A stretch of 64,000 nt of DNA from Patescibacteria group bacterium (GCA_041743715.1 JBGTMH010000080.1:8529-72528), one strand, 5' to 3'; shown: positions 27,947-51,490, counted from the stretch's first letter. The notes: generated from the letters alone by a model not told the origin. Numbers and translations are program-made.

Positions 27947-28138
27947 ATGACACCTGGAGAATCATTCATCAGCATCATACTCGTCATCATCGCCTATTTC
28001 CTGTCCCAAATAGCCAAACAACTTAGCTACCTCACCGGAAAACGCCTCAAGTCCCCCTTCACGAACTGGCAATCCAACAAACCCATTATAAAACCCCACC
28101 CCAGACCAGACCCAAAAGAAGAAAAACTCCCCAACTAA
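27947..28138 (+). CDS. Small membrane protein (63 aa) with Pro-rich tail ending KLPN
   Basis: One TM helix (ISIILVIIAYFLSQI) and a C-terminus PHPRPDPKEEKLPN that resembles the C-terminus of 28368..28844 (PPPPPNPEQKLPN). Confidence 0.35.
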   Translation: MTPGESFISIILVIIAYFLSQIAKQLSYLTGKRLKSPFTNWQSNKPIIKPHPRPDPKEEKLPN

Positions 28139-28367: not shown

Positions 28368-28844
28368 ATGCTTTTTCCATCAATGTTCAGAGGCCTCATA
28401 GATCTGGGCTATCAAAGGCGGGGCCTTGAGGTTATCGGATTCTATATGGCCTATGTCATCGGCTCAATCATGCTCGGTGCCGTCTTAGGGAATGGCGTCG
28501 CCGCCATCTTCGGAAGCAGCGCCGTCCGAGCAGAATGGAAAGTAGATTTCATCGCCATCAGCATCCTCTGTCTCGTCCTCTCTTTCTACTCCATAAAATT
28601 AAAAAACCTCGGCACCATAAAAATAATGTGGCTCCTCCCCATAGTCTCAGCCATCTTCGCCATCTACGGCGGCCCAGTCATGGGCCTCCTCATCCCCACA
28701 ATCCTCACCACCAGACCCAAAAACCACCCCTACACCCCCCTCCCCACAAGCAGCAATTTCGGAGCAGATGAGAAGTTAGTAAAAGAACAAGGCACCCAAC
28801 CCCCACCCCCTCCACCCAATCCAGAACAAAAACTCCCAAATTAA
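28368..28844 (+). CDS. Polytopic membrane protein with Pro-rich C-terminal tail (hypothetical)
   Basis: Four to five TM helices. Tail ...TTRPKNHPYTPLPTSSNFGADEKLVKEQGTQPPPPPPNPEQKLPN. Confidence 0.45.
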   Translation: MLFPSMFRGLIDLGYQRRGLEVIGFYMAYVIGSIMLGAVLGNGVAAIFGSSAVRAEWKVDFIAISILCLVLSFYSIKLKNLGTIKIMWLLPIVSAIFAIYGGPVMGLLIPTILTTRPKNHPYTPLPTSSNFGADEKLVKEQGTQPPPPPPNPEQKLPN

Positions 28845-29050: not shown

Positions 29051-29803
29051 ATGTTCAAGCCAAAAACTGAAAAAATAAAAACACTTGCAAGGATTTTCCC
29101 TTCAAGAATTAAAGAACTGGAAGAGATATTCAACAAACAGAGCATTGTCTATATTGATTATGCAAACGTCTATTTCTGGAGTAAGAAACTAAATTGGCAT
29201 ATTGATATTAAACGGCTAAAGCAACTGTTAGATTCATTTGATACAATTCGTACAGTACGATTGTATAATGGTACACTCAAAGGAGATCCCCAATCAAACA
29301 GCTTTATTAAAGACGCAAGAGCATTACATTATGCCGTATCTACCAAACCTGTCAAAATAATGCATCCTTCAATTGATGTATCAAGTATTCCAATCAACTC
29401 TCCTGCTATACTTGCAAATTTCATAGATAAATCACTGCTCAGGAGTCTTAACATCAAAACTATTGAATATCTAAATCTGCAATTAAAAGATTTAAATACT
29501 CAAGGGATAACATTTATTGAACGAAGAAAATGCAACTTTGATGTGGAGATAGGACGAGATATGCTCTTAGACTTTGCGAAAGATGATGTAGATAATTTTG
29601 TACTTTGGAGTGGAGATAGCGATTTTGCAGATCCTGTTACGCAGTTAATGAAAGATAAGAAAAAGGTAATTATCGTTGCTACTGCAAGAAGAGTATCGGT
29701 CGAACTTGCTGAAACCAAAGCTCCGATATTTGACATTCAGAAGATACGAAATTTCATCTGTAGAAATAATGAAATACAGGAAAAAATAAAAAAGACAATC
29801 TAA
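29051..29803 (+). CDS. NYN-domain (LabA-like/PIN-like) protein
   Basis: VYIDYANVYF...(N-terminal Asp region) and FVLWSGDSDFADPVTQLMKDKKKVIIVA (the NYN C-terminal motif) are present. Confidence 0.55.
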   Translation: MFKPKTEKIKTLARIFPSRIKELEEIFNKQSIVYIDYANVYFWSKKLNWHIDIKRLKQLLDSFDTIRTVRLYNGTLKGDPQSNSFIKDARALHYAVSTKPVKIMHPSIDVSSIPINSPAILANFIDKSLLRSLNIKTIEYLNLQLKDLNTQGITFIERRKCNFDVEIGRDMLLDFAKDDVDNFVLWSGDSDFADPVTQLMKDKKKVIIVATARRVSVELAETKAPIFDIQKIRNFICRNNEIQEKIKKTI

Positions 29804-30369: not shown

Positions 30370-33174
30370 ATGGATAAAAGCGAAGCAATCACACGACAAG
30401 AGATAATAGATAAACGCCTTGCAAAAGCTAACTGGGATGTAAAGAATCATTTTCAGGTAAAATCTGAACTTGATATATGGTTGGGTGTATCTGATGCTGA
30501 GAATATACAAGTTAACGAATATACTGGTCATCAGTTCGCAGATTATGCCTTACTTGGAGATGATGGCCACCCATTGGCAATTGTAGAAGCAAAAAAGACA
30601 TCAAAAGACGCCCGCATAGGACAAGAACAAGCTCGTCAGTATGCAGAAAATATTAAAAGGATTTCACAAAAAGATATGCCTTTTATTTTCTATACCAATG
30701 GTAATGATATTTACTTTTGGAATTCTGAAAAATACCCTCCTAGAAAGGTTTACGGATTCCCAACAAAAAAAGATTTAGAGAGAATGCTCTTTTTGAGGAA
30801 AAATGAAAAACCACTTTCTCAAGAACTAATAGACCGAGATATCTCAGGACGACCTTATCAGATAGAAGCAATCCGCTCTGTTTTTGAAAACATAGAGAAA
30901 GGGAAAAGAAAATCACTGCTCGTTATGGCAACCGGTACAGGAAAAACGAGAACGTGCGTATCAATGCTGGATGTTCTGATGCGAACAAACAGAGTACAGA
31001 AAGTTTTATTTCTGGTCGATAGAATTGCACTCAAAAATCAAGCACTCGATGCCTTTAGAGAATTTCTTCCTAATGCTCCAGTTTGGCCAAGATTTGGTGA
31101 AACTGAAATTGTAACGGATAGACGTATCTATGCCGCGACATACCCTACAATGCTTAATATTATTGAAAATAAAGACTGTCCTTTAAGTCCGCATTTCTTC
31201 GATATGATTGTTGCAGACGAAAGCCATCGGTCAATTTACAATGTCTATAAAAATATTTTTGATTACTTCGATGCCCTACAACTCGGACTTACCGCAACTC
31301 CAAAAGATGTCGTCGAACACAATACGTTTAGTCTATTCGAATGTGAAGAAGGCATACCGACCTATGCATACTCTTACGAGGAAGCAATAAACAATAAGCC
31401 TCCATACTTATGTGACTTCGAAGTCTTAAAAATTCGCACCAAATTTCAAAAAGAAGGTATTCGAAAAGATACTATTTCCAAAGCAGAACAATTAAAATTA
31501 CTTGCTGAGGGTAAAGAACCTGAAGAAATAAATTATGAAGGGAGTGATATTGAAAAGAAGGTTACGAATAGAGGAACAAACGCACTTATTGTCCAAGAGT
31601 TTATGGAAGAGTCGATAAAAGATGAGAGTGGCACTTTACCAGGAAAAACGATCTTCTTTGCAATGACCATGAAACATGCACGACGGTTGCAAGAAGTTTT
31701 TGACGATTTATATCCTGAGCATAAAGGAAATATAGCTAAAGTAATCGTGTCAGATGATCCTCGTGTCTATGGCAAAGGTGGTCTCTTAGACCAATTCGTT
31801 AATAGTGATTTTCCAAGAATTGCTATCAGTGTCGATATGCTTGATACGGGAATAGATGTTCGCGAACTTGTTAACTTAGTATTCGCCAAACCAGTTTTTT
31901 CATATACAAAATTCTGGCAAATGATTGGAAGAGGCACAAGACTTCTTGAGTCGAAAAAAATCAAACCCTGGTGTAAAGAAAAAGATAAATTCCTGATTAT
32001 GGATTGCTGGGAGAATTTTGATTATTTTGAAATGAACCCAACTGGAAAAACTGAAAAACCTACAAAGCCGCTCCCCGTTCGACTTTTTGAAAGTAAATTA
32101 GAAAAACTAAATATCGCACAGACGCAAAATAATAGTCTGTTAACGCAAAAAACGATTCTTAAACTAAAAGAAGATATTGAAAGGTTGCCACAAAATAATG
32201 TGGTTATATTAGATGCTAAAACAAAACTTGATAAGCTAAATGATACTTTTTGGCAAAATCTTAATGACGATAAGAAGCTTTATCTTCAAAAAGAAATTGC
32301 TCCGCTTATGCGTACACGAACGGGTGAAGATTATAAGGCGATGAGTTTTGAGTTAAAAGTCATAAAGTATTCCCTTACTAAACTGAAATCTGAAGATGAT
32401 AAAAAAGTAAAAACCCTTGAAGAGGTACTCATAGAAATGATTTCTGATCTACCACTAACTGTCAATATTGTCGCAAGAGAAAAAGAATTAATTGAAGACG
32501 TGCTTTATAATAACTACCTTAATAAAGCAACAGATGATGAGCTCGATATCTTAATAGAAAATATTGCTCCCTTAATGAAATTTCGAGAAGAAGGAATTAA
32601 GCCAGACCAAGATTCACTAGACTTACGAGACATTACACATGAAAAAGAATATATTAAATTCGGACCGCAACACGAAAGAATTACCACACATAAATATCGA
32701 GAAAAAGTCGAAGCATTGATCAAAAAACTTGAAAGGGAAAATGATATATTGGTAAAAATAAAAGAAGGAAAAAGCATTACTTCCGAAGAAATAGAAGAAC
32801 TTGCCACAACACTCGCTGAATACGACCCTTATCCTACAGAAGAGAACTTGCAAAAAGCATATGACGCAAGAACAGTAAGATTTATCGACCTTATAAAGTA
32901 TATAATGGGAATAGGCGGACTTGTTACTTTCTCCGAAAAAGTATCAGAAGCATTTGCAGAATTCATCGCTGAACATAATACACTCTCAGCAAAACAAATC
33001 CAGTTTTTACACACGCTACAAACATTCATTATCGAAAACGGCGAACTTTCAAAAAGAGACTTAGTTCGTGAACCATTTACGAAGATACATGCTGATGGAT
33101 TTCTGGGATTATTTGACCAACGCATGCAGTCTGAAATACTGGATCTAACGGAACAAATAACAAATTATGCTTAA
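30370..33174 (+). CDS. hsdR: Type I restriction enzyme R subunit (HsdR)
   Basis: HSDR_N-type N-terminus (ITRQEIIDKRLAKANWDV). SF2 helicase motifs: motif I LLVMATGTGKTRT and motif II VADESHRS (DEAH-like). 934 aa, overlapping hsdM by 8 nt. Confidence 0.85.
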   Translation: MDKSEAITRQEIIDKRLAKANWDVKNHFQVKSELDIWLGVSDAENIQVNEYTGHQFADYALLGDDGHPLAIVEAKKTSKDARIGQEQARQYAENIKRISQKDMPFIFYTNGNDIYFWNSEKYPPRKVYGFPTKKDLERMLFLRKNEKPLSQELIDRDISGRPYQIEAIRSVFENIEKGKRKSLLVMATGTGKTRTCVSMLDVLMRTNRVQKVLFLVDRIALKNQALDAFREFLPNAPVWPRFGETEIVTDRRIYAATYPTMLNIIENKDCPLSPHFFDMIVADESHRSIYNVYKNIFDYFDALQLGLTATPKDVVEHNTFSLFECEEGIPTYAYSYEEAINNKPPYLCDFEVLKIRTKFQKEGIRKDTISKAEQLKLLAEGKEPEEINYEGSDIEKKVTNRGTNALIVQEFMEESIKDESGTLPGKTIFFAMTMKHARRLQEVFDDLYPEHKGNIAKVIVSDDPRVYGKGGLLDQFVNSDFPRIAISVDMLDTGIDVRELVNLVFAKPVFSYTKFWQMIGRGTRLLESKKIKPWCKEKDKFLIMDCWENFDYFEMNPTGKTEKPTKPLPVRLFESKLEKLNIAQTQNNSLLTQKTILKLKEDIERLPQNNVVILDAKTKLDKLNDTFWQNLNDDKKLYLQKEIAPLMRTRTGEDYKAMSFELKVIKYSLTKLKSEDDKKVKTLEEVLIEMISDLPLTVNIVAREKELIEDVLYNNYLNKATDDELDILIENIAPLMKFREEGIKPDQDSLDLRDITHEKEYIKFGPQHERITTHKYREKVEALIKKLERENDILVKIKEGKSITSEEIEELATTLAEYDPYPTEENLQKAYDARTVRFIDLIKYIMGIGGLVTFSEKVSEAFAEFIAEHNTLSAKQIQFLHTLQTFIIENGELSKRDLVREPFTKIHADGFLGLFDQRMQSEILDLTEQITNYA

Positions 33175-34687
33175 TACGACAATAAAATCAGATATAAATC
33201 GCCTTTGGGATAAATTTTGGAGCGGTGGCATCTCTAATCCTTTAACTGCAATTGAACAAATCTCCTATCTCCTCTTCATGAAACGGCTCGATGAAATGGA
33301 TCTGAAAAAGAAACGCGATGCAGAATTTACTGGAGAAAGTTATCAATCAATTTTTGCAGGAAAAGAAAATCTTCGTTGGAGTCATTTCAGAGAAATGGAA
33401 GGCGGAGAAATGCTTACTCACATACAAACACAAGTCTTCCCTTTTCTAAAGTCGCTAGGCAAAGAAGAATCACCATTTGCAAAACATATGAGCAATGCCG
33501 TCTTCATTATTTCCAAGCCATCGCTCATAGTCGAAGCAGTAAGTATTATAGATACTCTCTTTACAGAAATTTCAAAACAATCATCCGAAGGCCAAGGATT
33601 CCAAGACACGCAAGGAGATGTCTACGAGCATTTACTCTCAGAAATAACAAGCGCCGGCAAACTCGGTCAATTTCGTACCCCAAGACATATTATTCAATTA
33701 ATCTGCGAGCTTGTTGATCCCAAACTAGGTGATACAATTTGCGACCCCGCATGCGGCACAGGAGGATTCCTGCTCGGAGCATACCAACACATTCTTACCC
33801 AACATACAAGTAAGGACCATCAACAAACAGATGAAAATGGCCTAACACGCGGACTTGTCGGAGACAACCTTACAGATGAGAGACAATGGAAACAGCTAAA
33901 GGAAAAAACATTCTATGGATACGATATGGACGACAGTATGGTACGAATCGGACTTATGAACCTCATGATGCATGGTATATCCATTCCAAATATTGAGCAA
34001 AAAGATACGTTATCTAAAAAGTACGATGAAGATAATTACTTCGACGTAATCATGGCCAATCCCCCCTTCAAAGGCAGTATCGATAAAGGTGATATCAACG
34101 AATCGTTATCTCTACCTACAACAAAAACAGAATTATTGTTTATCAATCGAATTATAAAATCTCTCAAAATTGGAGGCCGTGCTGGAGTAATCGTCCCAGA
34201 TGGAGTCCTTTTCGGGTCAAGTAATGCACACAAACAAGCCAGAAAAATGCTTCTCAACGACTGTGAACTACAAGGAATTATCTCTATGCCAAGCGGCGTC
34301 TTCAAACCATACGCTGGAGTAAGTACAGCAATTCTCATTTTTGTAAAAGGCGGAGAGACAGAAAAAGTTTGGTTCTATGATATGCAGGCAGATGGATATA
34401 GTCTAGATGATAAAAGAAGCAAAATTAAGGAAAACGATCTGCCAGACATTGTTGAGAAATGGAACTATAGAAAAGAATTAAAAGGAAACACTCGCTCTAG
34501 TATATTTTTCTCCGTAGATAAAAAAACAATTGAGGAAAACGATTTAGACCTGAGTATAAATAGATATAAAGTAACTAAATATAAAGAAGCAATCTATGAG
34601 GATAGCAAAATTATATTAAGTAAAATCAATAAACTTGAAGAAGAAATACAAAAAGGTATATCCGAATTATTAAATGTAAAATTATGA
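33167..34687 (+). CDS. hsdM: Type I R-M N6-adenine DNA methyltransferase subunit (HsdM)
   Basis: HsdM_N-like N-terminus (LWDKFWSGGISNPLTAIEQISYLLFMKRL). SAM motif DPACGTGGFL and catalytic NPPF (IMANPPFKGS). Confidence 0.9.
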   Translation: MLNTTIKSDINRLWDKFWSGGISNPLTAIEQISYLLFMKRLDEMDLKKKRDAEFTGESYQSIFAGKENLRWSHFREMEGGEMLTHIQTQVFPFLKSLGKEESPFAKHMSNAVFIISKPSLIVEAVSIIDTLFTEISKQSSEGQGFQDTQGDVYEHLLSEITSAGKLGQFRTPRHIIQLICELVDPKLGDTICDPACGTGGFLLGAYQHILTQHTSKDHQQTDENGLTRGLVGDNLTDERQWKQLKEKTFYGYDMDDSMVRIGLMNLMMHGISIPNIEQKDTLSKKYDEDNYFDVIMANPPFKGSIDKGDINESLSLPTTKTELLFINRIIKSLKIGGRAGVIVPDGVLFGSSNAHKQARKMLLNDCELQGIISMPSGVFKPYAGVSTAILIFVKGGETEKVWFYDMQADGYSLDDKRSKIKENDLPDIVEKWNYRKELKGNTRSSIFFSVDKKTIEENDLDLSINRYKVTKYKEAIYEDSKIILSKINKLEEEIQKGISELLNVKL

Positions 34688-35838
34688 CCAATGCCGTTAC
34701 CCTCGGGGAAGTATGTGAGTTTCTTGATTATCAAAGAAAACCTGTAACTGCAAAAGACCGAGTCTCAGGTAAATATCCATATTATGGTGCAAACGGGGTT
34801 CAGGATTATGTAGATAGCTATTTATTCGATGATGAACTAGTTTTACTGGCAGAAGATGGTGGACACTTTGATGATCCTTCTAGGGGAGTTGCTTATCGAG
34901 TAAGCGGAAAGTGTTGGGTTAATAATCATGCACATGTATTAAAGCCAAAGAATAATATAGACGTTGATTACCTTTATTATATATTAAGAGAGTATGACGT
35001 TAGGCCATTTATTACTGGTGCGATAATAAAGAAGCTTAATCAGAAAGATGCAAAGAGGATGACGCTATATCTTCCCTCCCTCGAAAAACAAAAAAGAATC
35101 GTAAAAGTTCTCGATCAAGCTGATTCTCTTCGTCAAAAACGCAAGCATTCACTCAAATTTTTAGATGAATATATCAAATCTGTTTTTCTTGAGATGTTTG
35201 GTGACCCAGTAAGTAACTTAAGAAAATGGGAGGTTGCAAAACTTGAAGACTTATTATCAAACATAGATAGTGGTTGGAGCCCTAAATGTTTAGAAGGAAA
35301 GGCTTCAAAGGAAAGCTGGGGAGTACTTAAGTTAAGTGCGATTACAAATTGTAATTATAATGAAGAACAAAATAAGGAACTCCCTAATTCTTTACATCCC
35401 AAACTAAGTATTGAAGTAAAAAGTGGCGATTTACTATTTTCAAGAAAAAATACCTATGAGTTAATTGCAGCGACCGCATTTGTGTTTAATACAAGACCTA
35501 AGTTAATGCTTTCAGATTTAATTTTTCGGTTAAAAACAAAAGATACTTCAGTAATTAGACCTCAATTTCTTTGGAAAACCTTAACACATTCAGGAAAAAG
35601 AAAAGAAATACAACGATTGGCAGGTGGTGCTTCAGGCTCGATGCCTAATATATCAAAAGCAAAGTTAAAAACCATTACCATACCTGTACCACCAATTGAT
35701 TTGCAACTGAAATTTACGCAAATTGTTAACGACACGGAAGTATTAAAAAGAAAAATGCTTAAACAAGCTTCTGATCTAGATTTACAATTTCAGTCACTGT
35801 TGCAAAAAGCTTTTAAAGAAGAATCACATGGAGAATGA
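34684..35838 (+). CDS. hsdS: Type I R-M specificity subunit (HsdS), two target-recognition domains
   Basis: Two TRDs separated by the conserved central region (LPSLEKQKRIVKVLDQADSLRQKRK) and a matching C-terminal conserved helix (IPVPPIDLQLKFTQIVNDTEVLKRKMLKQ). ATGA-type overlap with hsdM. Confidence 0.85.
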   Translation: MTNAVTLGEVCEFLDYQRKPVTAKDRVSGKYPYYGANGVQDYVDSYLFDDELVLLAEDGGHFDDPSRGVAYRVSGKCWVNNHAHVLKPKNNIDVDYLYYILREYDVRPFITGAIIKKLNQKDAKRMTLYLPSLEKQKRIVKVLDQADSLRQKRKHSLKFLDEYIKSVFLEMFGDPVSNLRKWEVAKLEDLLSNIDSGWSPKCLEGKASKESWGVLKLSAITNCNYNEEQNKELPNSLHPKLSIEVKSGDLLFSRKNTYELIAATAFVFNTRPKLMLSDLIFRLKTKDTSVIRPQFLWKTLTHSGKRKEIQRLAGGASGSMPNISKAKLKTITIPVPPIDLQLKFTQIVNDTEVLKRKMLKQASDLDLQFQSLLQKAFKEESHGE

Positions 35839-35994
35839 ACCCTTTTGACCAAATACATCAATATCATGAAGACTTGCCCCGCGCACAATATGGTTGTTGA
35901 AGTTTTAATTATGCCGTTCAACAGACGTGTAAACTTATAAATTTAGCCTCAATATGTATAAATTATCTCCTGTTATGTGTTGTTGAAATTTTAA

Positions 35995-37671
35995 TTATAC
36001 ATTTTCAACGGCAGGTATTACGAACCACTTCTTTTTAATCTTGTCATATTCAATTTTATTAGCCTGTTTTAACCTTCTTATTATGTTATAGCACATATCA
36101 TATGTATACCCTTTATCGTCAAAGATCTGAGTTATTCCTGCCATAGTAGCCCCACTCGTTCTATACTCTGTTAAATGGTTCATCACCTGATATTCTTCTT
36201 GCTCTTTTGTATACTTCTCCCATCTTGAACGTTTTCCAGTAGTTTGGGTTTTAGCAGCAAATTTTTTTGAGATATTACATCTACGAGTTCTGCCGGGACT
36301 TAAATCAATATAACCTAGCTTGGATAACCTTTCAGCATCATCTTTAGAAATTTGTGTAGGTGTTTTGTTAACACCTGATACAATTTTATCCAAGATTAAA
36401 AGATCTTCGAATTCTATATTACTTTTTTGTAAGACCAACTTAGCAAAATCTTCGTTATCTACTTTACCTAATAGCGTGAAATGAACAAAAGGAGGATTTA
36501 AGCTATCAAAAAAGTCATTTATGATTCTGGTTCCTTTTCGTAACTGTCTATCATACACTTTTCTCAATCCTCCTCCTTCTTGCTCCATTAAATTTACACT
36601 TCTAAACAAAAACGTCATCCTCGCATTTAAATATTCAGGCCTAATATTATTCTTAATTGCAGCCTCTAAATCTGCACGGAATCTACCAGGATTTCTAAAT
36701 GATACGCTTGTCGGTGTCTGAACAACATCAACCCATAACGATATTGTCCAGTCTCTATGAGCAAGGCTATTGACTAATAACTCTTCTATAGCCTCATCGT
36801 CATATTGTTTAATATCCTGCCTAAATAAATCTAAATCTCTCAAGTATGTATTAAATCGATGTATAGTAGTTTCAAGCTCATAAAGACTTAATAATAAAGG
36901 ACTATAAAAGTCCATTCTCTCAACCACTCCGTTCTTCTCATCCTCATACTTCCAGTGGATTTTTGCTATCTCGCCTAATAATCGCTCTGATGAATCTTTT
37001 TTTCCAAGATATAAAATACATGTGTTATTTGGGACATTATTTGTAAGTAATCGTTGAGAATTTAATAATTGCGTTAAGGACATATCAACATACTTTTTAT
37101 CACTGTGAATACTTGCAAGTTTTTCTCTAAGAAATATGATAGCCTTATCATCTAAATCATTGGGTGATGCTCCTATGCATGCGTTTGCTGACCAGTCAGT
37201 ACTTACTTTTTTATTCCAAATTTTTCTTGCCTTTTCAGGATAATCTTTTAATAGTTTCTTATATGACCCAACCCGAATATATTCTATTCCTTTAAACTTA
37301 ACTGGCATATCTTTTGTGGCATCAATTTTTAATATAACAATTGCCTTTCCAATATAATTGAATTCGTATACTTCAAAATCAATACGTGGACTAAGTAAAG
37401 ATGCAAGCCAATTTTCGAGTTCCTCATTACCTACTTTTTCATCCTTTGGTCTAAACTTTGTACCTACTATTTCATGAGTTATATCCTCAACACCAAAAAC
37501 AAGATAAGAGAAGTCTTCGTTATGCAGGCAGGCAGAATTAGACAGTGCGGATATATACTCTCCAATATCATGAGGCGAATAATTATTTATTTTAAACTCA
37601 ACCCATTCGGTTTCGCGGGGTAATCTAATTATTTCCTCAAATTTAGCTGTGATTACTTCTATAGAGAGCAT
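35995..37671 (-). CDS. AlbA_2 (Schlafen-like) DNA-binding domain + HATPase_c_4 domain protein (putative regulator/defense-associated ATPase)
   Basis: N-terminus AKFEEIIRLPRETEWVEFKINNYSPHDIGEYISALSNS (AlbA_2 divergent-AAA pattern). C-terminal part with an HATPase_c_4-like region and a wHTH. Start set at MLSIEVITAKF. Confidence 0.5.
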   Translation of the reverse strand: MLSIEVITAKFEEIIRLPRETEWVEFKINNYSPHDIGEYISALSNSACLHNEDFSYLVFGVEDITHEIVGTKFRPKDEKVGNEELENWLASLLSPRIDFEVYEFNYIGKAIVILKIDATKDMPVKFKGIEYIRVGSYKKLLKDYPEKARKIWNKKVSTDWSANACIGASPNDLDDKAIIFLREKLASIHSDKKYVDMSLTQLLNSQRLLTNNVPNNTCILYLGKKDSSERLLGEIAKIHWKYEDEKNGVVERMDFYSPLLLSLYELETTIHRFNTYLRDLDLFRQDIKQYDDEAIEELLVNSLAHRDWTISLWVDVVQTPTSVSFRNPGRFRADLEAAIKNNIRPEYLNARMTFLFRSVNLMEQEGGGLRKVYDRQLRKGTRIINDFFDSLNPPFVHFTLLGKVDNEDFAKLVLQKSNIEFEDLLILDKIVSGVNKTPTQISKDDAERLSKLGYIDLSPGRTRRCNISKKFAAKTQTTGKRSRWEKYTKEQEEYQVMNHLTEYRTSGATMAGITQIFDDKGYTYDMCYNIIRRLKQANKIEYDKIKKKWFVIPAVENV

Positions 37672-37945
37672 GAAAAAACTGTAATATAAAACACGTTCAT
37701 TATACACGACCTTTATCTTGCAAACAATTAACGGCATTGTACAATGCTCAATAATATATAGATAATTTTACTTTATTGATCTATAATTTCTGAAAAGCTC
37801 TTTGAAAAGCTGACGGAGAAAACCTCCGGCCCTTATTAGTGGGGTTAGTTTATCTCACGCCTCCTCCTAAGATCATAAATTTTTGTGATTTTAGGGGGAG
37901 CAGCAGATTAGCTTCCCTGCTATTTGGAAAGGGGGTGATTCAAAA

Positions 37946-38122
37946 ATGGTAAGATTCATCATCTACCAGGATAATGCTAAAGGATATCGATGGCGACTTG
38001 TCGCAGCAAACAACGAAATCGTTGCTTGGGACGAAAGTTATACAACTAAACAAGGGGCCATCAATTCTGCGCAATGGATTCAAGCTCATGCGCATTCAGC
38101 TCCTATCCACGATTTAACTTAA
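37946..38122 (+). CDS. DUF1508 (YegP-like) small protein, 58 aa
   Basis: My own translation reads MVRFIIYQDNAKGYRWRLVAANNEIVAWDESYTTKQGAINSAQWIQAHAHSAPIHDLT, which matches the YegP/DUF1508 repeat (F.IY.D..G.YRWRL.A.NGEI.A.SE.Y..K..A...I). A strong RBS aagGGGGTGAttcaaaaATG precedes it. It is below the ORF-track size cutoff. Confidence 0.65.
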   Translation: MVRFIIYQDNAKGYRWRLVAANNEIVAWDESYTTKQGAINSAQWIQAHAHSAPIHDLT

Positions 38123-38215
38123 AAGGTTAAATCAAACCTCCTCGTCAGCTTTTTGAAGAGCTTAAATAAGTTTGTATATTGGGGAGAAATTAAACAAAAT
38201 GAGATTAAATAACAT

Positions 38216-39220
38216 ATGAAAAAGATACAGGACAACCAAATTGCGTTCTATCAATCACTGGATGGATCGGTGAATATTGAAGTGTTGTATGCTGAAGAAA
38301 ATATCTGGCTCACACAAAAGAAAATGGCAGAACTTTTTGACACCACTCCTCAAAACATCACGCAACACTTAAAAAATATATATGCAGCAAATGAAATTGA
38401 GGATTCAACTTGTAAGGATTTCTTACAAGTTCAACAAGAAGGAAGCCGGGAAATTAAAAGAAATACCACAATGTATTCGTTGGAAGCTATAATTGCTGTT
38501 GGGTATCGAGTTAATTCGGAAAGAGGTACTCAGTTTCGTCAATGGGCAACGGGGATATTGAAAAATTACATTCACAAAGGTTATGCACTGGATAGTAATC
38601 GCATGAAATATGGCTCCCGATTTAGCACTCGGTATTTTGATGAGCTTTATGAAGAGATCAAAGACATTCGTACGAGCGAACGGATGATTTATCAGAAGAT
38701 TACAGACATCTATGCAACTGCTATAGATTATTCGCCAATTGCATATGCGAGCAAAAAATTTTTCGCGACAGTACAGAACAAACTTCATTTTGCGATCACT
38801 GGAGAAACGGCAGCCGAAATAATTACCAATCGCGTAAGCAGTAAAAAAGACAAAATGGGACTCACTTCATGGCGCAAATCACCACAAGGTAAAATCATGC
38901 CTAGCGATGTGACAATTGCCAAAAATTATTTGGATAAAAAAGAACTTGCTCATCTTAATCGTATCGGCAATATGTATTTGGACTATGCAGAAATGCAGGC
39001 AGCCAGAGGAAAGGCAATGACGATGAAAGATTGGATAGAAAAACTGAATGCTTTTCTAAAATTCAGCGAATATGAAATTTTAACCAATGCCGGTAAGATC
39101 AGTCATGAAGTCGCAGAATCCCTAGCTTTAGGGGAATATGAAAAATATAAAAAAATACAAGACAAAAACTATATTTCTGATTTTGATCGGGAAGTGAAGA
39201 AGTTGTTGAAGAAAAAATAA
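38216..39220 (+). CDS. RhuM-family protein (Virulence_RhuM)
   Basis: The core EGSREIKRNTTMYSLEAIIAVGYRVNSERGTQFRQWATGILKNYIHKGYALDSNR matches the RhuM family signature. Confidence 0.75.
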   Translation: MKKIQDNQIAFYQSLDGSVNIEVLYAEENIWLTQKKMAELFDTTPQNITQHLKNIYAANEIEDSTCKDFLQVQQEGSREIKRNTTMYSLEAIIAVGYRVNSERGTQFRQWATGILKNYIHKGYALDSNRMKYGSRFSTRYFDELYEEIKDIRTSERMIYQKITDIYATAIDYSPIAYASKKFFATVQNKLHFAITGETAAEIITNRVSSKKDKMGLTSWRKSPQGKIMPSDVTIAKNYLDKKELAHLNRIGNMYLDYAEMQAARGKAMTMKDWIEKLNAFLKFSEYEILTNAGKISHEVAESLALGEYEKYKKIQDKNYISDFDREVKKLLKKK

Positions 39221-39452
39221 CTAAGCAGCTACAGGGGTGAACTTCCAGGGGTTCTTTTTGTCGTTTGTTTCTACTGCTTTAATTGCCTTCCTGCCTTCTT
39301 CTAAAAGTACTTTCCGAAACAGTTGCAATTATGGAACAATTGGATAACGTTGATTAATAAATACTTAAGATTTGGTTTATGAAACTGATTTCAAACTGAT
39401 ATAAGTATACTAGACAATCAGATGCATCTTATGGTATAAAACTTCTGCAATT

Positions 39453-40310
39453 ATGAACCATTACGTTTTTCAAGTTTCAGACCAGTCAAATTATAGCACT
39501 CATCGCACAGCTGCGGAAACATTTGACCAGCTTGTAAGACAACACTCTGTATGGGGTTTTGGTAAAAATACCCCTAACAGAAAAGCAATACAACCAGGTG
39601 ATAAAGTTCTCTTTTATTTAACTGGAGCAGATAATCAAACTTTTGTAGGTTCAGCTACGTTAAAAACTGGTTCTTACGTAGATGCAACTGGAGAATCAAA
39701 AGATTGGTTCTTAGACCCAGAAACGTTAAGAATTGACCTTCAAGATGTAGCAATTTTCCCTCAACCTAAACCTCGACATCAGTTCAAAAGCCTTGAATGG
39801 CAACCCCGACAAGGTGGCTCCAGCACAATTTCCGAAAGGGACTACTTATTGATACTGGGGCTAAAACCGGATACCACAATCAAAGAAGAAATAGCTGAAG
39901 AATCTATGGATATAGTTCTTGAAGAATATCTTGAAAATATGATCATCCAAAATTGGGAAAAAATAAATTTTGGAGAAAAATTAACAATTTTTGAGGATGA
40001 AAACGGTAATTTAGGTAAGCAATATTATACAAAAGAAGTTGGCTATATTGATATATTAGCAAAAGATAGTAAGGGTAATTTTGTTGTAGTCGAACTTAAG
40101 GTTGGAAGGAAAAATGATGAAGTAGTCGGTCAAATCCTCAGATATATGGGATGGGTCCGTAAAAACTTAGCAGGAGGAAAAGAAAATGTACGTGGTTTAA
40201 TTATTGTAGGGGAACAAGACACAAAACTTGATTATGCTTTAAGCGAAATATCAGATAAGGTGGAAGTAAAAAAATATAATGTTTCTCTTACTTTAAATAA
40301 ATATGAATAG
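39453..40310 (+). CDS. EVE/PUA-like domain fused to a PD-(D/E)xK nuclease (DUF91/NucS-like); candidate modification-dependent (type IV) restriction endonuclease
   Basis: N-terminal ~130 aa has an EVE/ASCH-like beta-barrel pattern (YVFQVSDQSNY...VWGFGKNTPNRKAIQPGDKVLFYLTG). The C-terminus has VGYIDILAKDSKGNFVVVELKVGRKNDEVVGQILRYMGWV, i.e. D-x(n)-E-x-K, the restriction-endonuclease-fold catalytic motif. Confidence 0.55.
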   Translation: MNHYVFQVSDQSNYSTHRTAAETFDQLVRQHSVWGFGKNTPNRKAIQPGDKVLFYLTGADNQTFVGSATLKTGSYVDATGESKDWFLDPETLRIDLQDVAIFPQPKPRHQFKSLEWQPRQGGSSTISERDYLLILGLKPDTTIKEEIAEESMDIVLEEYLENMIIQNWEKINFGEKLTIFEDENGNLGKQYYTKEVGYIDILAKDSKGNFVVVELKVGRKNDEVVGQILRYMGWVRKNLAGGKENVRGLIIVGEQDTKLDYALSEISDKVEVKKYNVSLTLNKYE

Positions 40311-40387: not shown

Positions 40388-40903
40388 TTAGTTCATTCCT
40401 AAAGGTCGTACGCTGATAGTAAAAGGATCTCCTGTTAATTTATATCCGGGGAGAGGACTGTATACGCCGGCATTATGGAGGTGCATTAAATTTCGTTCCT
40501 GATTGTAGGCAAGCCCGTGGCCTCGTGCGGCGGATTGAACTCCCTGTAAGCCTGTATATCTAACTGCGACAAAAGGCTTGAGAGTAACCTTCTTATTTAT
40601 GACCATATCATACATATCCACAACCTGAATATAAGGATTTGATATCTCCACCATTCGCGCAGGAACCGCTAAAAAATGCGTGCTGAAATTATTATCACGA
40701 AAGACTGTTTCAAGTACAGCAAAATTTACAGGACCAAACTCTTTGAGATACTTATGAAGCGCACGAGTGAAAGCATATGAATCACCTTTACGCCTCTGCT
40801 CGTCCGGCCGCCTGAAAAGACCTGCAATAGCAGCTGCTTTTCTTGCATCAATCCCAAATTCACTTTCTAAATTCATAAATGAAATAATACCATCCTCCCC
40901 CAA
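40388..40903 (-). CDS. Hypothetical protein (171 aa; possibly a gene fragment)
   Basis: ORF with a locally higher-GC codon pattern and no recognisable motifs. Its N-terminal region overlaps the upstream extension of the P3 long ORF, which is not used here. Confidence 0.3.
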   Translation of the reverse strand: MGEDGIISFMNLESEFGIDARKAAAIAGLFRRPDEQRRKGDSYAFTRALHKYLKEFGPVNFAVLETVFRDNNFSTHFLAVPARMVEISNPYIQVVDMYDMVINKKVTLKPFVAVRYTGLQGVQSAARGHGLAYNQERNLMHLHNAGVYSPLPGYKLTGDPFTISVRPLGMN

Positions 40904-40985: not shown

Positions 40986-43211
40986 ATGCAGATAAAAGAA
41001 CTAATTGACCGGAAAGCTTCTTTTTCAAAAAGAGTTATACAAAATAGCTTCTCTTCACTTTTTCTGGGCCTCAGTGTTATAGTAGGGTTTTTTATAATGC
41101 TCTTTGTTTTACCAGTACTTACTTCCCCAGGATACGCACAGACTTTTCCAAACTGGACAAATACAGGTTCGATGGCTGATGCACGTTATAATTTTGGTAC
41201 GGCATTATTACCAAATGGTAAAGTACTGGCAGTAGCAGGTCGTGCTCAAGGTGTTAATAATAATCTTCATTCAGCAGAACTATATGACCCAACAAATGGT
41301 ACATGGAATACAACGGGTTCAATGAATTCGTTCCGTCACGACTTCCCAAAGCCAATCACCCTCTCAAATGGAAAAGTACTTGTAACTGGAGGGAGTAACA
41401 GTACTTCTCTTTCCTCTACTGATTTATATGATTCAAATACAGGGACATGGACATTCACGGGATCTATGAATGATAGTCGTACATTTCCTACTGCTACATT
41501 ACTTCCTGATGGCAAGGTATTAGTAACTGGAGGATATGATGCAGATTTCAGTACCGTTGTCTACCATTCCTCAGCTGAGATATATGATCCTACATCAGGC
41601 ACGTGGACGCCAACAGGATCTATGAGTACTGCTCGTTACCATCACACCGCTACACTTCTTAATAACGGAAAAGTACTTATCTCTGGAGGTAGTGATGCTA
41701 CTGATAGTCTTGCTTCAACAGAACTCTATGATCCTACAACAGGTACTTGGACATCAACAGGAAATTTGAATGAAGCTCGCTCTGAACACACTGCCACCTT
41801 ACTCTCAAACGGCAAAATACTTGTTGCTGCAGGATCAGGACCTGCTCCTCTTGCGTCAACAGAACTCTATGATCCAGTTACCGGTAATTGGACTGCTACA
41901 GGAAATTTGAATGAAGCTCGATCAGTACATACTGCAACATTACTCTCAAGTGATAACGTCCTTATTGCCGGTGGTATAGTAGGTGGTAGCACTACCTCAT
42001 CTGCTGAACTATATGATCCTATTAGCGGCATATGGTCACTGACCGCACCCTTGAATCAAGCACGTGGGTTTCATGAAGCTGAGTTATTACTAAATAATAA
42101 AGTGTTAGCAGTTGGTGGTTTTGGTTTAAATTCTAGTGATGCACTAGCATCAGCAGAGCTTTATACGCTCATTGAACCAACACCTACAGCCACCCCCACA
42201 GCAACGCCGACACCGACGCCTACAGAAACGCCCACCCCAACTCCAACCGAAACCCCTACTCCTACTCCCACAGATACCCCCTCTCCGACACCAACCCCAG
42301 TTCCAACGTATACCATTGACGGCAACGTTTATACAGATAGCAATCAAAACGGTGTCAAAGATTCCGGTGAAACAGATTACCAAGGAGCGACTATAACGCT
42401 TTCTGGAGATGCAAGTGACACAACGACAACAAATAATTCAGGCAACTATACATTTTCATCCCTCAATACCGGCTCATATACAGTGAATCTCAGTGTGCCA
42501 GCAGGATACACTGCAACAACCACCAATCCAGTCTCAGTACCCTTGACTGCTGATACAACAGTTAACTTCGGAATAGCACCTGTGCCAACCAGTACCCCAA
42601 CTCCCATACCTACAAATACGCCAACACCAACTGCGACACCTACCCCTACAGATACACCGACTCCAACCGCAACACCAACACCTACGAGTACACCAACTCC
42701 TACTCCAACACCAAAGATACTCTCATCTTTGAGTCCTGCAAAAGTGTGGATCGGGTTACCTAATTTCTTTAGCGCGGGTGCAAAGTTTGATGTGAAAGTC
42801 GAAGCATTTAAAGATGCAACCCTGGTCAGCTCGGGACAGAAAAATAGTGTTGATCCAGGACTTGGGTTTGGTGGATTTACGAGTGCAAAGCTACAAACAA
42901 TTCCATTCGGTGCCTTCACTCCTGTTAATTTTCCACAAGGATCAAAATTGAGCATCAAAGTGTCTGCAAGAACTGCTTGCACCGGATCACAAAGTCCGAT
43001 CGGCACCGCGAGACTGTGGTACAATGATAGTCAAGCAAATAGCAGCTTTGATGCCACCATCGGGATAACGAACAGCGACTATTACCTCCGTTCCGGCTCA
43101 ATCCTCACCACAACAGTCGGGAGCGGACCAAAACTAACATCTGATGTCCTAGGTGGAGCAGCATGTAGCGCATTCAAACCATTCGGCACATGGGTCACGA
43201 CTCCTTTATAA
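40986..43211 (+). CDS. Secreted Kelch-repeat surface protein P3 with SdrD-B-like module and conserved C-terminal domain
   Basis: Start at ATG 40986 (MQIKELIDRKASFSKRVIQNSFSSLFLGLSVIVGFFIMLFVLPV), colinear with the P1 N-terminus. About 8 Kelch blades (AELYDPTNGTWNTTGSMNSFRHDF...). PT linkers. An SdrD-B/Cna-B-like module (VPTYTIDGNVYTDSNQNGVKDSGETDYQGATITLSGD...). CTD ending GGAACSAFKPFGTWVTTPL. Confidence 0.85.
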   Translation: MQIKELIDRKASFSKRVIQNSFSSLFLGLSVIVGFFIMLFVLPVLTSPGYAQTFPNWTNTGSMADARYNFGTALLPNGKVLAVAGRAQGVNNNLHSAELYDPTNGTWNTTGSMNSFRHDFPKPITLSNGKVLVTGGSNSTSLSSTDLYDSNTGTWTFTGSMNDSRTFPTATLLPDGKVLVTGGYDADFSTVVYHSSAEIYDPTSGTWTPTGSMSTARYHHTATLLNNGKVLISGGSDATDSLASTELYDPTTGTWTSTGNLNEARSEHTATLLSNGKILVAAGSGPAPLASTELYDPVTGNWTATGNLNEARSVHTATLLSSDNVLIAGGIVGGSTTSSAELYDPISGIWSLTAPLNQARGFHEAELLLNNKVLAVGGFGLNSSDALASAELYTLIEPTPTATPTATPTPTPTETPTPTPTETPTPTPTDTPSPTPTPVPTYTIDGNVYTDSNQNGVKDSGETDYQGATITLSGDASDTTTTNNSGNYTFSSLNTGSYTVNLSVPAGYTATTTNPVSVPLTADTTVNFGIAPVPTSTPTPIPTNTPTPTATPTPTDTPTPTATPTPTSTPTPTPTPKILSSLSPAKVWIGLPNFFSAGAKFDVKVEAFKDATLVSSGQKNSVDPGLGFGGFTSAKLQTIPFGAFTPVNFPQGSKLSIKVSARTACTGSQSPIGTARLWYNDSQANSSFDATIGITNSDYYLRSGSILTTTVGSGPKLTSDVLGGAACSAFKPFGTWVTTPL

Positions 43212-43357
43212 AGCTGCAAATCACTGAATGGTTGACTTCCTCGGATTGATATTTTATTAACTACTCTCTCTCAGTCGTTGAACTCTTTCTTTTAAAAAAT
43301 TCTTATTTACCTCTATTTTGTCATATTGCATCATATTCCTATTTATGCAAAAATGGC

Positions 43358-45382
43358 ATGAGAATTGCTCGTAATGTTTCTATACCTTTTATGAAATTAT
43401 TCAAACGCTGTTTTGTTATTCTTACAAGTATTCTATTTCTTACGTGTCTCCCCCTTGTACCTGGTCAGACTTTTGCAGAATTTGAGATCACAGAGTATGC
43501 TATTCCTACGGATGACAGTTTACCCATCGGCATAACTTCCGGACCTGACGGCAATATCTGGTTTGTTGAGCAAAGTGGCAATAAGATTGGAAAAATTACC
43601 ACAAGTGGCGTAATCACCGAGTTCACTGTTCCTACAAGTTCGAGCCAGCCTAATGATATCGTCACTGGGTCTGACGGTAATCTGTGGTTCACGGAATTCA
43701 ACGGAAATAAGATTGGAAAAATTACTCCCGATGGGGTATTCACGGAGTATCCTCTTCCCACCAGTAGCAGTTATCCATTAGGTATAACCTTAGGCCCTGA
43801 CGGTAACCTTTGGTTTACTGAATTCCATGGGAATAAAATAGGAAGAATTACAACAAGTGGCGTAATTACCGAGTTTACTATTCCTACAAATGGCAGTCAG
43901 CCGTACTATATTACCTCTGGCCCTGACGGCAATCTTTGGTTTACAGAACAAAGTGCAAATAAAATCGGACGAATTTCTACGAATGGTACATTTACTGAAT
44001 ATACTATCCCCTCCTTTAATTCCGTGCCAGAAGGCATAACTTCTGGTCCTGATGGTAACCTTTGGTTTACTGAATTTCGTGTTGGGAAAATAGGAAAAAT
44101 CACCCCAAGTGGTGTAATCACCGAGTATGCAACTCCCACGAGTAATAGCCAGCTGATTGACATTACTTCCGGCTCTGATGGTAATCTATGGTTTACTGAA
44201 TACAATTGGGGAAAGATAGGAAAAATCACCCCAAGTGGCATAATCACCGAGTATGACATACTCGCTAGTAGTAGTGCGCCTTTCACTAGTGGGAGTCAGC
44301 CGTTCGGTATTACCTCTGGCCCTGACGGAAATATCTGGTTCACTGATTATGGCGCCGACGGCACAAACAGTATCGGACGTGTTACCCTTCCCAGCGTGAC
44401 CACCACGCCAACTCCTACTGAGACACCTATACCTACCGCCACACCAACTCCTACTGCAACTCCAACCGAAACGCCTCCCACACCCACAGATACCCCGACT
44501 CCAACACCTACTCCAGTACCTACGTATACCATAAACGGCAATGTCTATACCGATAGCAATCAGAATGGTGTGAAAGACACTGGAGAAACAGACTATGAGG
44601 GAGCAACTATAACACTTTCTGGAGATGCTAATGATACAACGACAACAAATAACTCAGGCAACTACTCGTTCTCATCCCTTAACACCGGCTCGTACACAGT
44701 CACTCTCCGTGTTCCAGCAGGACATACAGCAACGACCACCAATCCCATCTCAGTACCATTAACAGCTGATACCACAGTTAATTTCGGTATTGCGCCTGCA
44801 CCGACAAACACCCCAACTCCAACTGCAACGACTACCCCAACAGCTACACCCACTCCTACCAGCGCCCCGACACCTACTCCAGAGCCAAATAAAATCACCT
44901 CTTTGAGTTCTGCAAAAGTATGGGTGGGACTCTCGAGTGTTATTGGTGCGGGGGCTAAATTTGATTTGAAGGCAGAGGCGTATAAAGATGCGACACTTAT
45001 CAGTTCCGGACAAATCAATAATGTTTATCCTGGACTGGGATTAGGATTTTTGACAGCAAAACAACATACCATTCCCTTTAACACATTTACACCCGTTGAT
45101 TTCCCCGAGGGATCAAAATTAAGCATCAAAGTCTCTGCACGAACAGCTTGTACTGGCTCTCTGAATCCTCTAGGATCAGCAAGACTCTGGTACAACGACA
45201 GTCAAGCCAACAGCCAATTTAGGGCAACCATAGGCGCGGACACACACAACTATCATCTACTGAATAACTATGTCCTCTCAACAACAGTCGGCACTGGACC
45301 AAAACAAACCGCTGATGTCCTAGGTGGAGCAGCATGCAGCGCATTCAAACCATTCGGCACATGGGTCACCACTCCTTTATAA
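43358..45382 (+). CDS. Secreted beta-propeller surface protein P4 (Vgb-lyase-like repeats) with SdrD-B-like module and conserved C-terminal domain
   Basis: Signal peptide. About 8 repeats of ~47 aa (ITSGPDGN(I/L)WFTExxGNKIGKITxSGVITE(F/Y)x(I/V)PT), a streptogramin-lyase-type six-bladed-propeller pattern. PT linkers, an SdrD-B-like module ~90% identical to that of P3, then the CTD. Confidence 0.85.
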   Translation: MRIARNVSIPFMKLFKRCFVILTSILFLTCLPLVPGQTFAEFEITEYAIPTDDSLPIGITSGPDGNIWFVEQSGNKIGKITTSGVITEFTVPTSSSQPNDIVTGSDGNLWFTEFNGNKIGKITPDGVFTEYPLPTSSSYPLGITLGPDGNLWFTEFHGNKIGRITTSGVITEFTIPTNGSQPYYITSGPDGNLWFTEQSANKIGRISTNGTFTEYTIPSFNSVPEGITSGPDGNLWFTEFRVGKIGKITPSGVITEYATPTSNSQLIDITSGSDGNLWFTEYNWGKIGKITPSGIITEYDILASSSAPFTSGSQPFGITSGPDGNIWFTDYGADGTNSIGRVTLPSVTTTPTPTETPIPTATPTPTATPTETPPTPTDTPTPTPTPVPTYTINGNVYTDSNQNGVKDTGETDYEGATITLSGDANDTTTTNNSGNYSFSSLNTGSYTVTLRVPAGHTATTTNPISVPLTADTTVNFGIAPAPTNTPTPTATTTPTATPTPTSAPTPTPEPNKITSLSSAKVWVGLSSVIGAGAKFDLKAEAYKDATLISSGQINNVYPGLGLGFLTAKQHTIPFNTFTPVDFPEGSKLSIKVSARTACTGSLNPLGSARLWYNDSQANSQFRATIGADTHNYHLLNNYVLSTTVGTGPKQTADVLGGAACSAFKPFGTWVTTPL

Positions 45383-45402
45383 AGCTGTCTTTACACACTT
45401 TT

Positions 45403-51001: not shown

Positions 51002-51490
51002 TTAGTCGTTTGCATCGTAGTCTTTTTTGACAAACTCGTCATTGTGTTTGATCAGAAGCCACGAGTCTTTGGGTCCCCAGCCTTTGGTTTTTACCAAGGC
51101 AAATGATCCTTTCATTTTTTTCCCATGCAGCATGAATTTTATCTCTCCTTTTTTCATCCCCTCCTGCATCACCTTTTCTCCCTCTTTCCGATCGGTAATT
51201 TCTTTTCTGACACCTTTTGAAACTTCAATTTCCGGGATGTAATATCCCGCGTCCCAAATCATAACCGGTCCAGCACCATAGGAGCCTTCCGGGATAACGC
51301 CCTCGAAATGGCGGTAGTCCATGCTATGGTCGGTTGTCGGCATCGCAAGACGCTTGAGCGTATTATCTAGTGTCGGACCTTTTGCAATTGCCCAAGAAGC
51401 CATGACACCGTCTATTTGTAGCCGAAAATCATAATGCAAACTTGTAGCTTTATGTTTATGGATAACAAAAACGAGAGAATCCCGACTCAT
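51002..51490 (-). CDS. DNA ligase D 3'-phosphoesterase (PE) domain protein, standalone
   Basis: FVIHKHKATSLHYDFRLQIDGVMASWAIAKGPTLD...KRLAMPTTDHSMDYRHFEGVIPEGSYGAGPVMIWDAGYY matches the LigD-PE signature (VIQ.H.A..LHYDFRLE.dGvL.SWAvPKGPS...KRLAv..EDHP..Y..FEG.IP). Confidence 0.85.
   Translation of the reverse strand: MSRDSLVFVIHKHKATSLHYDFRLQIDGVMASWAIAKGPTLDNTLKRLAMPTTDHSMDYRHFEGVIPEGSYGAGPVMIWDAGYYIPEIEVSKGVRKEITDRKEGEKVMQEGMKKGEIKFMLHGKKMKGSFALVKTKGWGPKDSWLLIKHNDEFVKKDYDAND

Follow-up and report, generated by a model that had tools for sequence, protein, structure and literature searches.

Immune proteins of several families have been described in association with type I restriction-modification (R-M) systems. 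We analysed a 64,000-nucleotide stretch of DNA from a Patescibacteria group bacterium (GCA_041743715.1, JBGTMH010000080.1:8529-72528), called the window here, in which an hsdR-hsdM-hsdS operon shares 10 kb with genes for a Schlafen-type protein, a RhuM-family protein and a protein that joins an EVE domain to a PD-(D/E)xK nuclease.

Each of these families has described relatives. In RzAgo, the SLFN-pAgo protein of Runella zeae, a supradomain composed of a Schlafen (AlbA_2) nuclease and a GHKL ATPase ('Schlatpase') requires ATP-driven tetramerisation for tRNA cleavage and phage protection. The ATPase is carried by 58.6% of 103,533 prokaryotic Schlafen proteins, and most of the Schlafen-ATPase proteins are small and stand-alone, some with a C-terminal helix-turn-helix (HTH) domain (10.64898/2026.05.29.728809). 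The CRISPR-linked Schlafen protein (Cash) cleaves tRNA, and a tight association with R-M, BREX and type I CRISPR systems was reported for Schlafen-ATPase clusters (2026 Nature Communications, PMC13462974). RhuM was proposed to be a toxin in the DOC position within R-M neighbourhoods (Anantharaman et al. 2013, PMC3710099), and a representative of the PADLOC family PDC-S05, to which RhuM corresponds, reduced plating in E. coli B about 1000-fold in the case of phage T7 or T5 and about 10-fold in that of T4 (10.1101/2024.09.26.614923). The EVE-PD(D/E)XK arrangement is a core architecture of predicted type IV enzymes (Bell et al. 2020, PMC7641849).

We consider it likely that the locus is a chromosomal defence island composed of an intact type I R-M system and three immune modules, each an autonomous single gene of a kind habitually found with type I R-M. 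The window is chromosomal and contains recA, tRNA-Pro, RNase Y, metK and ABC transporters, as well as surface proteins of the Kelch/SdrD type that are very large. A first-pass annotation of this DNA had proposed a composite defence island at 30370-40310. All the genes and domains that it named were located in our open reading frame (ORF) map and Pfam searches, the HATPase_c_4 domain below threshold. The island itself was borne out for the core built round the type I operon, which is backed by PADLOC matches, motifs, homologue contexts and the literature, and was not borne out for a Cys-rich peptide, for mobility of a DUF1508 gene and for hypotheticals in the plural. The genes of the core are as follows.

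30370-33174, plus strand: hsdR, restriction subunit, EcoAI/EcoEI-like
33167-34687, plus strand: hsdM, N6-adenine methyltransferase
34684-35838, plus strand: hsdS, specificity subunit
35995-37671, minus strand: predicted Schlafen (AlbA_2) nuclease with GHKL ATPase ('Schlatpase'), convergent with hsdS
38216-39220, plus strand: RhuM-family protein (PADLOC PDC-S05), full length
39453-40310, plus strand: EVE (PUA-like modified-base reader) with NucS-like PD-(D/E)xK nuclease, predicted, 285 aa

The type I operon and its companion modules

Domains and motifs mark the hsdR-hsdM-hsdS operon as complete and intact and as EcoAI/EcoEI-like (IB-like), with HsdR scoring below the NCBIfam cutoff for the EcoAI equivalog (269.8 bits, 5e-80, against 550). 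The genes overlap by 8 nt (hsdR/hsdM) and 4 nt (hsdM/hsdS), as in a coupled operon. HsdR (ResIII 7e-39, EcoEI_R_C 2e-25, HSDR_N; PADLOC REase_I 2.6e-163) contains the nuclease motif D58...E73-x-K75 together with the superfamily 2 helicase motifs I, II, III and VI (ATGTGKT, DESH, TAT and QMIGRGTR). HsdM (N6_Mtase 4e-65, HsdM_N; PADLOC MTase_I 6e-177) has the S-adenosylmethionine-binding motif I DPACGTGGF and the catalytic NPPF, and HsdS (Methylase_S 5.8e-30 in two stretches; PADLOC Specificity_I 1e-72) has two target-recognition domains. With these motifs in place the type I system looks functional. Two plasmid type I operons (NZ_CP034088.1 and NZ_CP099557.1) were observed to carry rhuM between hsdM and hsdS, with either a Shedu nuclease and a HAD hydrolase or a KAP NTPase and an ATP-binding protein in the hsdS-hsdR interval; they are good comparators for the passenger-gene content of type I loci.

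The ORF of the Schlafen gene extends to 37737; the gene probably occupies 35995-37671 because its homologues begin at Met23. AlbA_2 is matched at 5.7e-20 (72.5 bits against a Pfam cutoff of 25.3) and the protein has a C-terminal extension. Its family is very large, with members of about 555 aa; 1681 homologues were scored, and the ATPase domain PF13749 is present in most of them. Residues E42-x4-E47-x-K49, the SALSN box (S63/A64/N67), the GHKL residues E319 and N323 (Mg/ATP), N349/G351 and the GGG box were observed to be invariant or nearly so in 25 homologues. The protein also matches PDB 3lmm (1.5e-6), and PADLOC returned weak matches only. Among the homologues, one is located in a DISARM-like operon, one between an SNF2 helicase and an Eco57I-type methylase and one beside Fic. 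The protein appears to be a Schlatpase supradomain, for which a mechanism can be proposed by analogy only. In the convergent gap between hsdS and the Schlafen gene, a 20-nt direct repeat, GTTGTTGAARTTTTAATTAT, occurs at 35894-35916 and 35980-36002, 86 bp apart, and its second copy overlaps the Schlafen stop codon.

The rhuM gene is located 2.4 kb downstream of hsdS. Its product is matched over its full length, both by Pfam (1.2e-104; 349.6 bits against a cutoff of 33.7) and by the PADLOC model PDLC04851 (PDC-S05; 2.5e-141 over residues 5-332 of 334). No solved structure of the family is detectable by sequence. In all three plasmid loci inspected, the rhuM homologue was found within a type I R-M operon whose stop and start codons overlap, and KAP NTPase or Shedu genes adjoined it.

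The third module combines Pfam matches to EVE (34.3 bits against a cutoff of 23), NucS_C and YhcG_C. PDC-S02 is matched (9e-37) by residues 138-283 only, corresponding to model positions 163-307 of 308; this is not a full-length match, and the N-terminal half differs. In an alignment with Pyrococcus NucS, D200 and E214-L-K216 fall on catalytic residues, and D200, E214 and K216 together with Q227, R230 and Y231 are invariant in 25 homologues. The AlphaFold (AF2) model (mean predicted local distance difference test, pLDDT, 87.5) matches the folds of PH1033, PSPTO5229, THYN1-5mC DNA, VcaM4I (EVE-HNH) and the YTH and ASCH readers, with 1wmm, 2eve, 5j3e and 6yex among the structures matched. A homologue of the nuclease domain is found inside an Acinetobacter type I R-M operon, beside an Abi gene. 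We infer a defence role for the protein at this locus, with cleavage that would depend on modified bases. A full-length homologue was noted at 8001-8855 of locus L085 (JGI Ga0209542_10000663), about 5 kb downstream of recA-recX-rny-HU and adjoining a DUF433/DUF5615 toxin-antitoxin pair, and further full-length homologues in housekeeping neighbourhoods were noted at loci L081 and L083.

The following division of labour can be proposed. HsdM2S would methylate host sites, and HsdR would translocate along unmethylated incoming DNA and cut it. Hypermodified phage DNA escaping R-M would be recognised through the modified-base pocket of the EVE domain and cut by the NucS-like nuclease, in a type IV-like manner. 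The Schlafen-GHKL protein would stay inactive until an infection cue is received, after which ATP-driven oligomerisation would assemble the Schlafen nuclease, leading to tRNA cleavage and to abortion of the infection. RhuM would be a further toxin-type effector. The activities of the modules, their triggers and their cooperation are what we infer from the integrity of the motifs, the contexts of homologues and the experiments on relatives.

Extent of the island and its accessory genes

PADLOC models run on the region matched R, M, S, RhuM (PDC-S05) and the nuclease half of the EVE protein (PDC-S02). The four defence families are clustered within 10 kb and no comparable matches were found elsewhere in the 64 kb. 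For ten further proteins of the window, the matches obtained were only partial and of generic ATPase or Cas4-like type, and therefore the strong defence assignments are restricted to 30.3-40.3 kb. Several unrelated systems are thus gathered in one locus, which is one of the characteristics of a defence island. In annotated plasmids, homologues of RhuM, of the NucS-like domain and of the Schlafen-ATPase protein are located within type I R-M or DISARM-like operons.

The G+C content (GC) is 0.33-0.37 across 29-41 kb against 0.42-0.47 in the flanks (0.47 at 28-29 kb), and the G+C content of third codon positions (GC3) is 0.23-0.35 in the island genes against 0.41-0.61 in the genes immediately to the left. 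This composition suggests, without proving it, that the island was acquired. The proposed span holds the core genes; three other genes that had been linked to the island fall outside it.

29051-29803, plus strand: NYN-domain (PIN-like) predicted RNase, 250 aa
30017-30307, plus strand: DUF3761-type small membrane-anchored Cys-rich protein, 96 aa
40388-40876, minus strand: conserved hypothetical, 162 aa, convergent with the EVE nuclease gene

The NYN gene is the left-most low-GC gene (GC3 0.275). The protein (Pfam NYN 2.4e-17) shows IDxxN and SGDSDF motifs in its translation and partial PADLOC matches to NYN/LabA (2.4e-10) and HEC-09 (6.6e-10), and its membership of the island is uncertain. Between it and hsdR, the low-GC run is broken by the DUF3761 gene (GC 0.51, GC3 0.66; Pfam 6e-6, 27.1 bits against a cutoff of 29), whose composition resembles that of the native-looking genes for proteins of 63 and 158 aa (p63 and p158) and not that of the island genes. 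Because a gene of native composition sits between them, the NYN gene and the 30.35-40.3 kb segment hint at two insertions. The DUF3761 protein had been listed with the island as a Cys-rich secreted peptide. We rejected an island-encoded secreted factor because of its composition and its DUF3761 match, and since its GC3 matches that of the native flank genes, it is probably a native, non-defence gene and not island cargo.

The hypothetical at the right border had been annotated at 40388-40903 as a gene of locally odd composition. The gene is present, its start moves to 40876 because homologues start at Met10, and its GC of 0.425 resembles that of the flanks. It is transcribed from the Kelch-side intergenic region, and the Kelch gene, with a likely start at 40986, does not overlap it. 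Exhaustive HMMER searching of 1.84 billion proteins gave 28 family representatives, mostly of 150-170 aa, in which D25, E56, R60, N129 and G137 are invariant. Searches of Pfam, NCBIfam, PHROG and PADLOC gave no match for the protein. The AF2 model is confident (pLDDT 90) and has no Foldseek match in the PDB (best E-value 2.1); borderline matches were observed to three uncharacterised giant-virus proteins, from Yasminevirus, Marseillevirus LCMAC101 and Catovirus (E 1.5e-3 to 9e-3, query-normalised template modelling (TM) score 0.48-0.57). Metagenome and viral scans provided no context for the family, with no phage or plasmid matches and only contigs of less than 1 kb. The hypotheticals of the region had been regarded as prime anti-phage candidates; this protein is the one true hypothetical among them, it is linked to defence by adjacency alone, and its island membership is not established.

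A small DUF1508 gene separates the Schlafen gene from rhuM and is set in a highly structured unit.

37795-37818, no strand: inverted repeat, left arm, between promoter-like sites of the Schlafen gene and the DUF1508 gene
37816-37945, plus strand: DUF1508 leader, long hairpin
37946-38122, plus strand: DUF1508/UPF0339 (YegP, HVO_2922-like) single-domain protein, 58 aa
38137-38163, no strand: inverted repeat, right arm, just past the DUF1508 stop, overlapping a -35-like hexamer before rhuM

The protein matches DUF1508 at 2.7e-13 (50 bits against a cutoff of 22), HVO_2922 in NCBIfam at 5e-11 (below cutoff) and the structures 3bid (1e-8) and 6q2z (3e-4). Single DUF1508 domains form homodimers. Tandem copies have been likened to sPC4/Whirly, a fold that binds single-stranded nucleic acid, and a sensor role was proposed for them in Menshen NsnA. 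That inverted repeats bracket the gene was confirmed: 37795-37815 and 38143-38163 pair over 21 nt with 19 of 21 positions complementary, the repeat is unique in the window, and two matches were obtained in none of 100 shuffles. Each arm contains the near-palindrome AGCTYTTTGAARAGCT. The RNA of 37780-38180, which the inverted repeat closes, has a folding energy of -146 kcal/mol (z = -9.3). The 135-nt leader alone reaches -57.5 kcal/mol (z = -5.9), with 0 of 200 shuffles as stable, and the coding part has z = -4.5. At the base of the leader hairpin, the Shine-Dalgarno-like GGGGG before the start codon pairs with an upstream CCUCC. Promoter-like sites were observed at 37759-37787 (plus strand), 37794-37765 (minus strand, Schlafen) and 38153-38180 (rhuM); these are consensus matches only, in a scan that was not enriched overall. 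As the first of these sites ends at 37787, the RNA would start at the left arm. No Rfam family matches the unit or its leader. Both an mRNA panhandle (for processing, stability or translational control) and paired operators of a shared regulator fit the arms. Taken together, the NYN RNase and the DUF1508 protein are possible accessories of the island, and the DUF3761 protein and the 162-aa hypothetical probably have no part in it.

Alternative readings of the locus

Several observations weigh against a defence island. No close or syntenic relative was found through scans with DoxX, RecA, FKBP and the 162-aa family, and the variability of the locus is unproven. The closest relative of RecA among 185,579 species representatives is from a Candidatus Daviesbacteria metagenome-assembled genome, at 60% identity, DoxX had no match in the GTDB species representatives, FKBP reached at best 60% on tiny contigs of JGI metagenomes, and tblastn of 26 window proteins against 174 fetched loci gave no locus sharing at least three genes. 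The closest named homologues of the EVE nuclease and the Schlafen protein are from Saccharimonadales and Paceibacterota, and the DNA therefore probably derives from an uncultivated bacterium of the Candidate Phyla Radiation/Patescibacteria that lacks close sequenced relatives. In a collection of 15 billion proteins, the island proteins found are each the sole member of their 90% identity cluster, except RhuM, whose cluster has one further member of 246 aa; the DUF1508 protein was not found there. The low GC is not unique to the island because 1-4 kb and 16-22 kb are equally AT-rich, and no integrase, transposase or flanking direct repeats were found at the island. The HATPase_c_4 match (PF13749) of the Schlafen protein is sub-threshold (22.4 bits against 26), and two of the five inspected Schlafen homologues have housekeeping neighbours. 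The EVE-nuclease family is unusually conserved, with a mean column identity of 68% and 65 invariant columns, and in three other genomes its full-length members lie beside ribosomal-protein, NUDIX or recA-recX-rny-HU genes. The one PDC-S02 representative tested gave no protection against T4, T5 and T7 (10.1101/2024.09.26.614923). The modules are also separate transcription units on both strands, and their functional cooperation is for this reason conjectural.

Some of these points feed a reading in which only the type I R-M system is devoted to defence and its neighbours are adjacent by chance, the EVE-NucS-like protein being a housekeeping nuclease of the Candidate Phyla Radiation (CPR), engaged in NucS/EndoMS-style repair or in modified-base surveillance, and the Schlafen protein a DNA/RNA-binding regulator. 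The 579 full-length EVE-nuclease homologues are 55-68% identical over their full length, so conserved that the protein looks unlike a typical defence gene and the family may be a lineage-wide nuclease and not a sporadic defence gene; its fold aligns to NucS/EndoMS over the whole protein (223-236 columns), and Schlafen homologues are annotated 'RNA-binding/DNA-binding domain protein'. However, the protein falls below both NCBIfam NucS equivalog cutoffs (43.4 against 216 bits and 23.1 against 252 bits), and its N-terminal domain is nearer to EVE readers (target-normalised TM-score 0.54-0.63) than to NucS (0.37-0.39). Nuclease-domain homologues sit inside type I R-M operons, a toxin-antitoxin pair or an AAA_15 ATPase is found near the EVE-nuclease gene in two of the three genomes, and chance is hard to credit for four defence-type families in 10 kb with none elsewhere in the window. 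We regard this reading as unlikely as a whole and keep the housekeeping nuclease as a live rival because of the family's conservation, its housekeeping neighbours and the lack of protection by PDC-S02. The island could also be the remnant of an integrated mobile element (an integrative element or plasmid), in which R-M and addiction or abortive modules would serve self-maintenance and not host immunity. The low GC and GC3 relative to the immediate flanks would agree with this, as would the frequency of RhuM, NucS-domain and Schlafen homologues on plasmids, the tRNA-Pro 5 kb to the left and a TraG/VirD4-like ATPase at 58.8-61 kb. However, no integrase, relaxase or replication gene was found between 24 and 46 kb, searches for att-like direct repeats and for a tRNA fragment or tRNA-derived repeats found none, and the DUF3761 gene of native composition interrupts the low-GC run, so that a mobile-element origin of this kind seems improbable.

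A narrower question concerns the DUF1508 unit, for which the term cassette in the first-pass annotation implied mobility. A small mobile cassette (resembling a miniature inverted-repeat transposable element or an integron cassette) placed between the Schlafen gene and rhuM would account for a 21-24 nt inverted repeat that brackets the gene exactly and for a unit GC (0.42) above that of the neighbours. However, the arm occurs in only two copies in the window, no target-site duplication is visible, plasmids yielded no similar DNA, and the scanned viral contigs and the phage records yielded no relative of the protein. The arms fall on promoter-like sites, and as 5' and 3' ends they pair to close a single, very stable RNA fold. 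Regulation or RNA processing accounts for this better than transposition does, and we hold the cassette to be highly improbable. There is a small chance that the DUF1508 protein senses for, or regulates, the Schlafen or RhuM effector beside it, its expression being gated by the paired mRNA ends and by the hairpin that hides the ribosome-binding site, and/or that the 162-aa family is a new defence or anti-defence protein. A defence island of one type I R-M system and three single-gene modules is the reading that we retain.

Other features of the window and comparison with described systems

Outside the island, a C-terminal module of about 950 bp is common to the Kelch-repeat protein and its neighbour, a Vgb-lyase-like beta-propeller protein (42259-43216 and 44475-45387, 72-91% DNA identity), and is preceded in both by similar Thr/Pro-rich linkers and an SdrD_B domain; it has the look of a surface-protein C-terminal cassette that was duplicated or exchanged recently. 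The 63- and 158-aa proteins (27947-28138 and 28368-28844) are small membrane proteins of high GC3 with a Pro-rich tail and a common C-terminal ...KLPN, and a 22-nt hairpin with 95% complementarity (28170-28191/28280-28301) lies between their genes. At 45403-46128 (minus strand), 5 kb to the right of the island, a 241-aa protein with a C-terminal DUF559 domain (Vsr-like endonuclease fold) and a weak N-terminal MTES_1575 REase-like match may be a further stand-alone nuclease; it has no PADLOC match. A stand-alone LigD 3'-phosphoesterase domain protein (51002-51490, minus strand) and a Cas4-like PDDEXK_1 nuclease (52626-53453, plus strand) lie near each other in a window that lacks both CRISPR and ligase genes, and may form a repair module. 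The TraG/VirD4/HerA-like coupling ATPase (58796-61042, minus strand; DUF87, TrwB_AAD_bind and TraG-D_C) lies about 18 kb from the island; in surroundings that are otherwise chromosomal, it hints at the remains of a conjugation or type IV secretion system.

The conceptual gain from this locus is little because all the component families have been described before, as have their associations with type I R-M. It indicates that even a small-genome, probably episymbiotic CPR-type bacterium may stack immunity in layers, with R-M, a nuclease for modified DNA, an effector of the Schlafen tRNase type and RhuM. Three effectors that are mechanistically uncharacterised as stand-alone proteins occur in it in a natural, compact form. 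Three leads come out of it: the EVE-NucS-like family with its strong conservation, the heavily structured transcript of DUF1508 and the small orphan family of the 162-aa protein, whose fold is unmatched.

The Schlafen protein appears to have the same two domains in the same order as the RzAgo Schlatpase and the Schlafen-ATPase clusters described with Cash. It contains the E(x)4(D/E)xK motif, the Schlafen box and the GHKL Mg/ATP residues, and it shares with those clusters a defence-island setting adjoining type I R-M. Unlike RzAgo it has no Argonaute core, and its trigger therefore cannot be guide-target pairing. Its C-terminal extension is about 180 aa, a part that the preprint terms HTH-type for small Schlatpases. 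No stand-alone Schlatpase has been characterised, and ATP-dependent oligomerisation and tRNA cleavage are known only for RzAgo and Cash. RhuM is a full-length match to the PDC-S05 defence candidate, a family with one member validated against T7, T5 and T4.

The EVE protein shares an N-terminal EVE reader and a C-terminal nuclease with the EVE-HNH enzymes VcaM4I and TspA15I and with the predicted EVE-PD(D/E)XK enzymes, whereas its nuclease is of the NucS/RecB-like PD-(D/E)xK type and not HNH. Defence EVE domains are described as fast evolving, in contrast to the EVE-NucS-like family, which is highly conserved and in three other genomes lies outside defence contexts. With NucS/EndoMS it shares the C-terminal catalytic domain (D...ExK and Q motifs) and the two-domain layout, and differs in its EVE-like N-terminal domain and in scoring under the NucS equivalog thresholds. 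Finally, the operon has the same R, M and S domains, including EcoEI_R_C, as the plasmid type I loci NZ_CP099557, NZ_CP034088, NC_017070 and NZ_CP087717, with which RhuM, NucS-domain nuclease, Abi, Shedu or KAP genes ride, while its HsdR lies under the EcoAI equivalog cutoff. In the plasmid loci these passengers are found between hsdM, hsdS and hsdR, whereas here they lie downstream of an unbroken R-M-S operon, on both strands and with promoter-like sites of their own.

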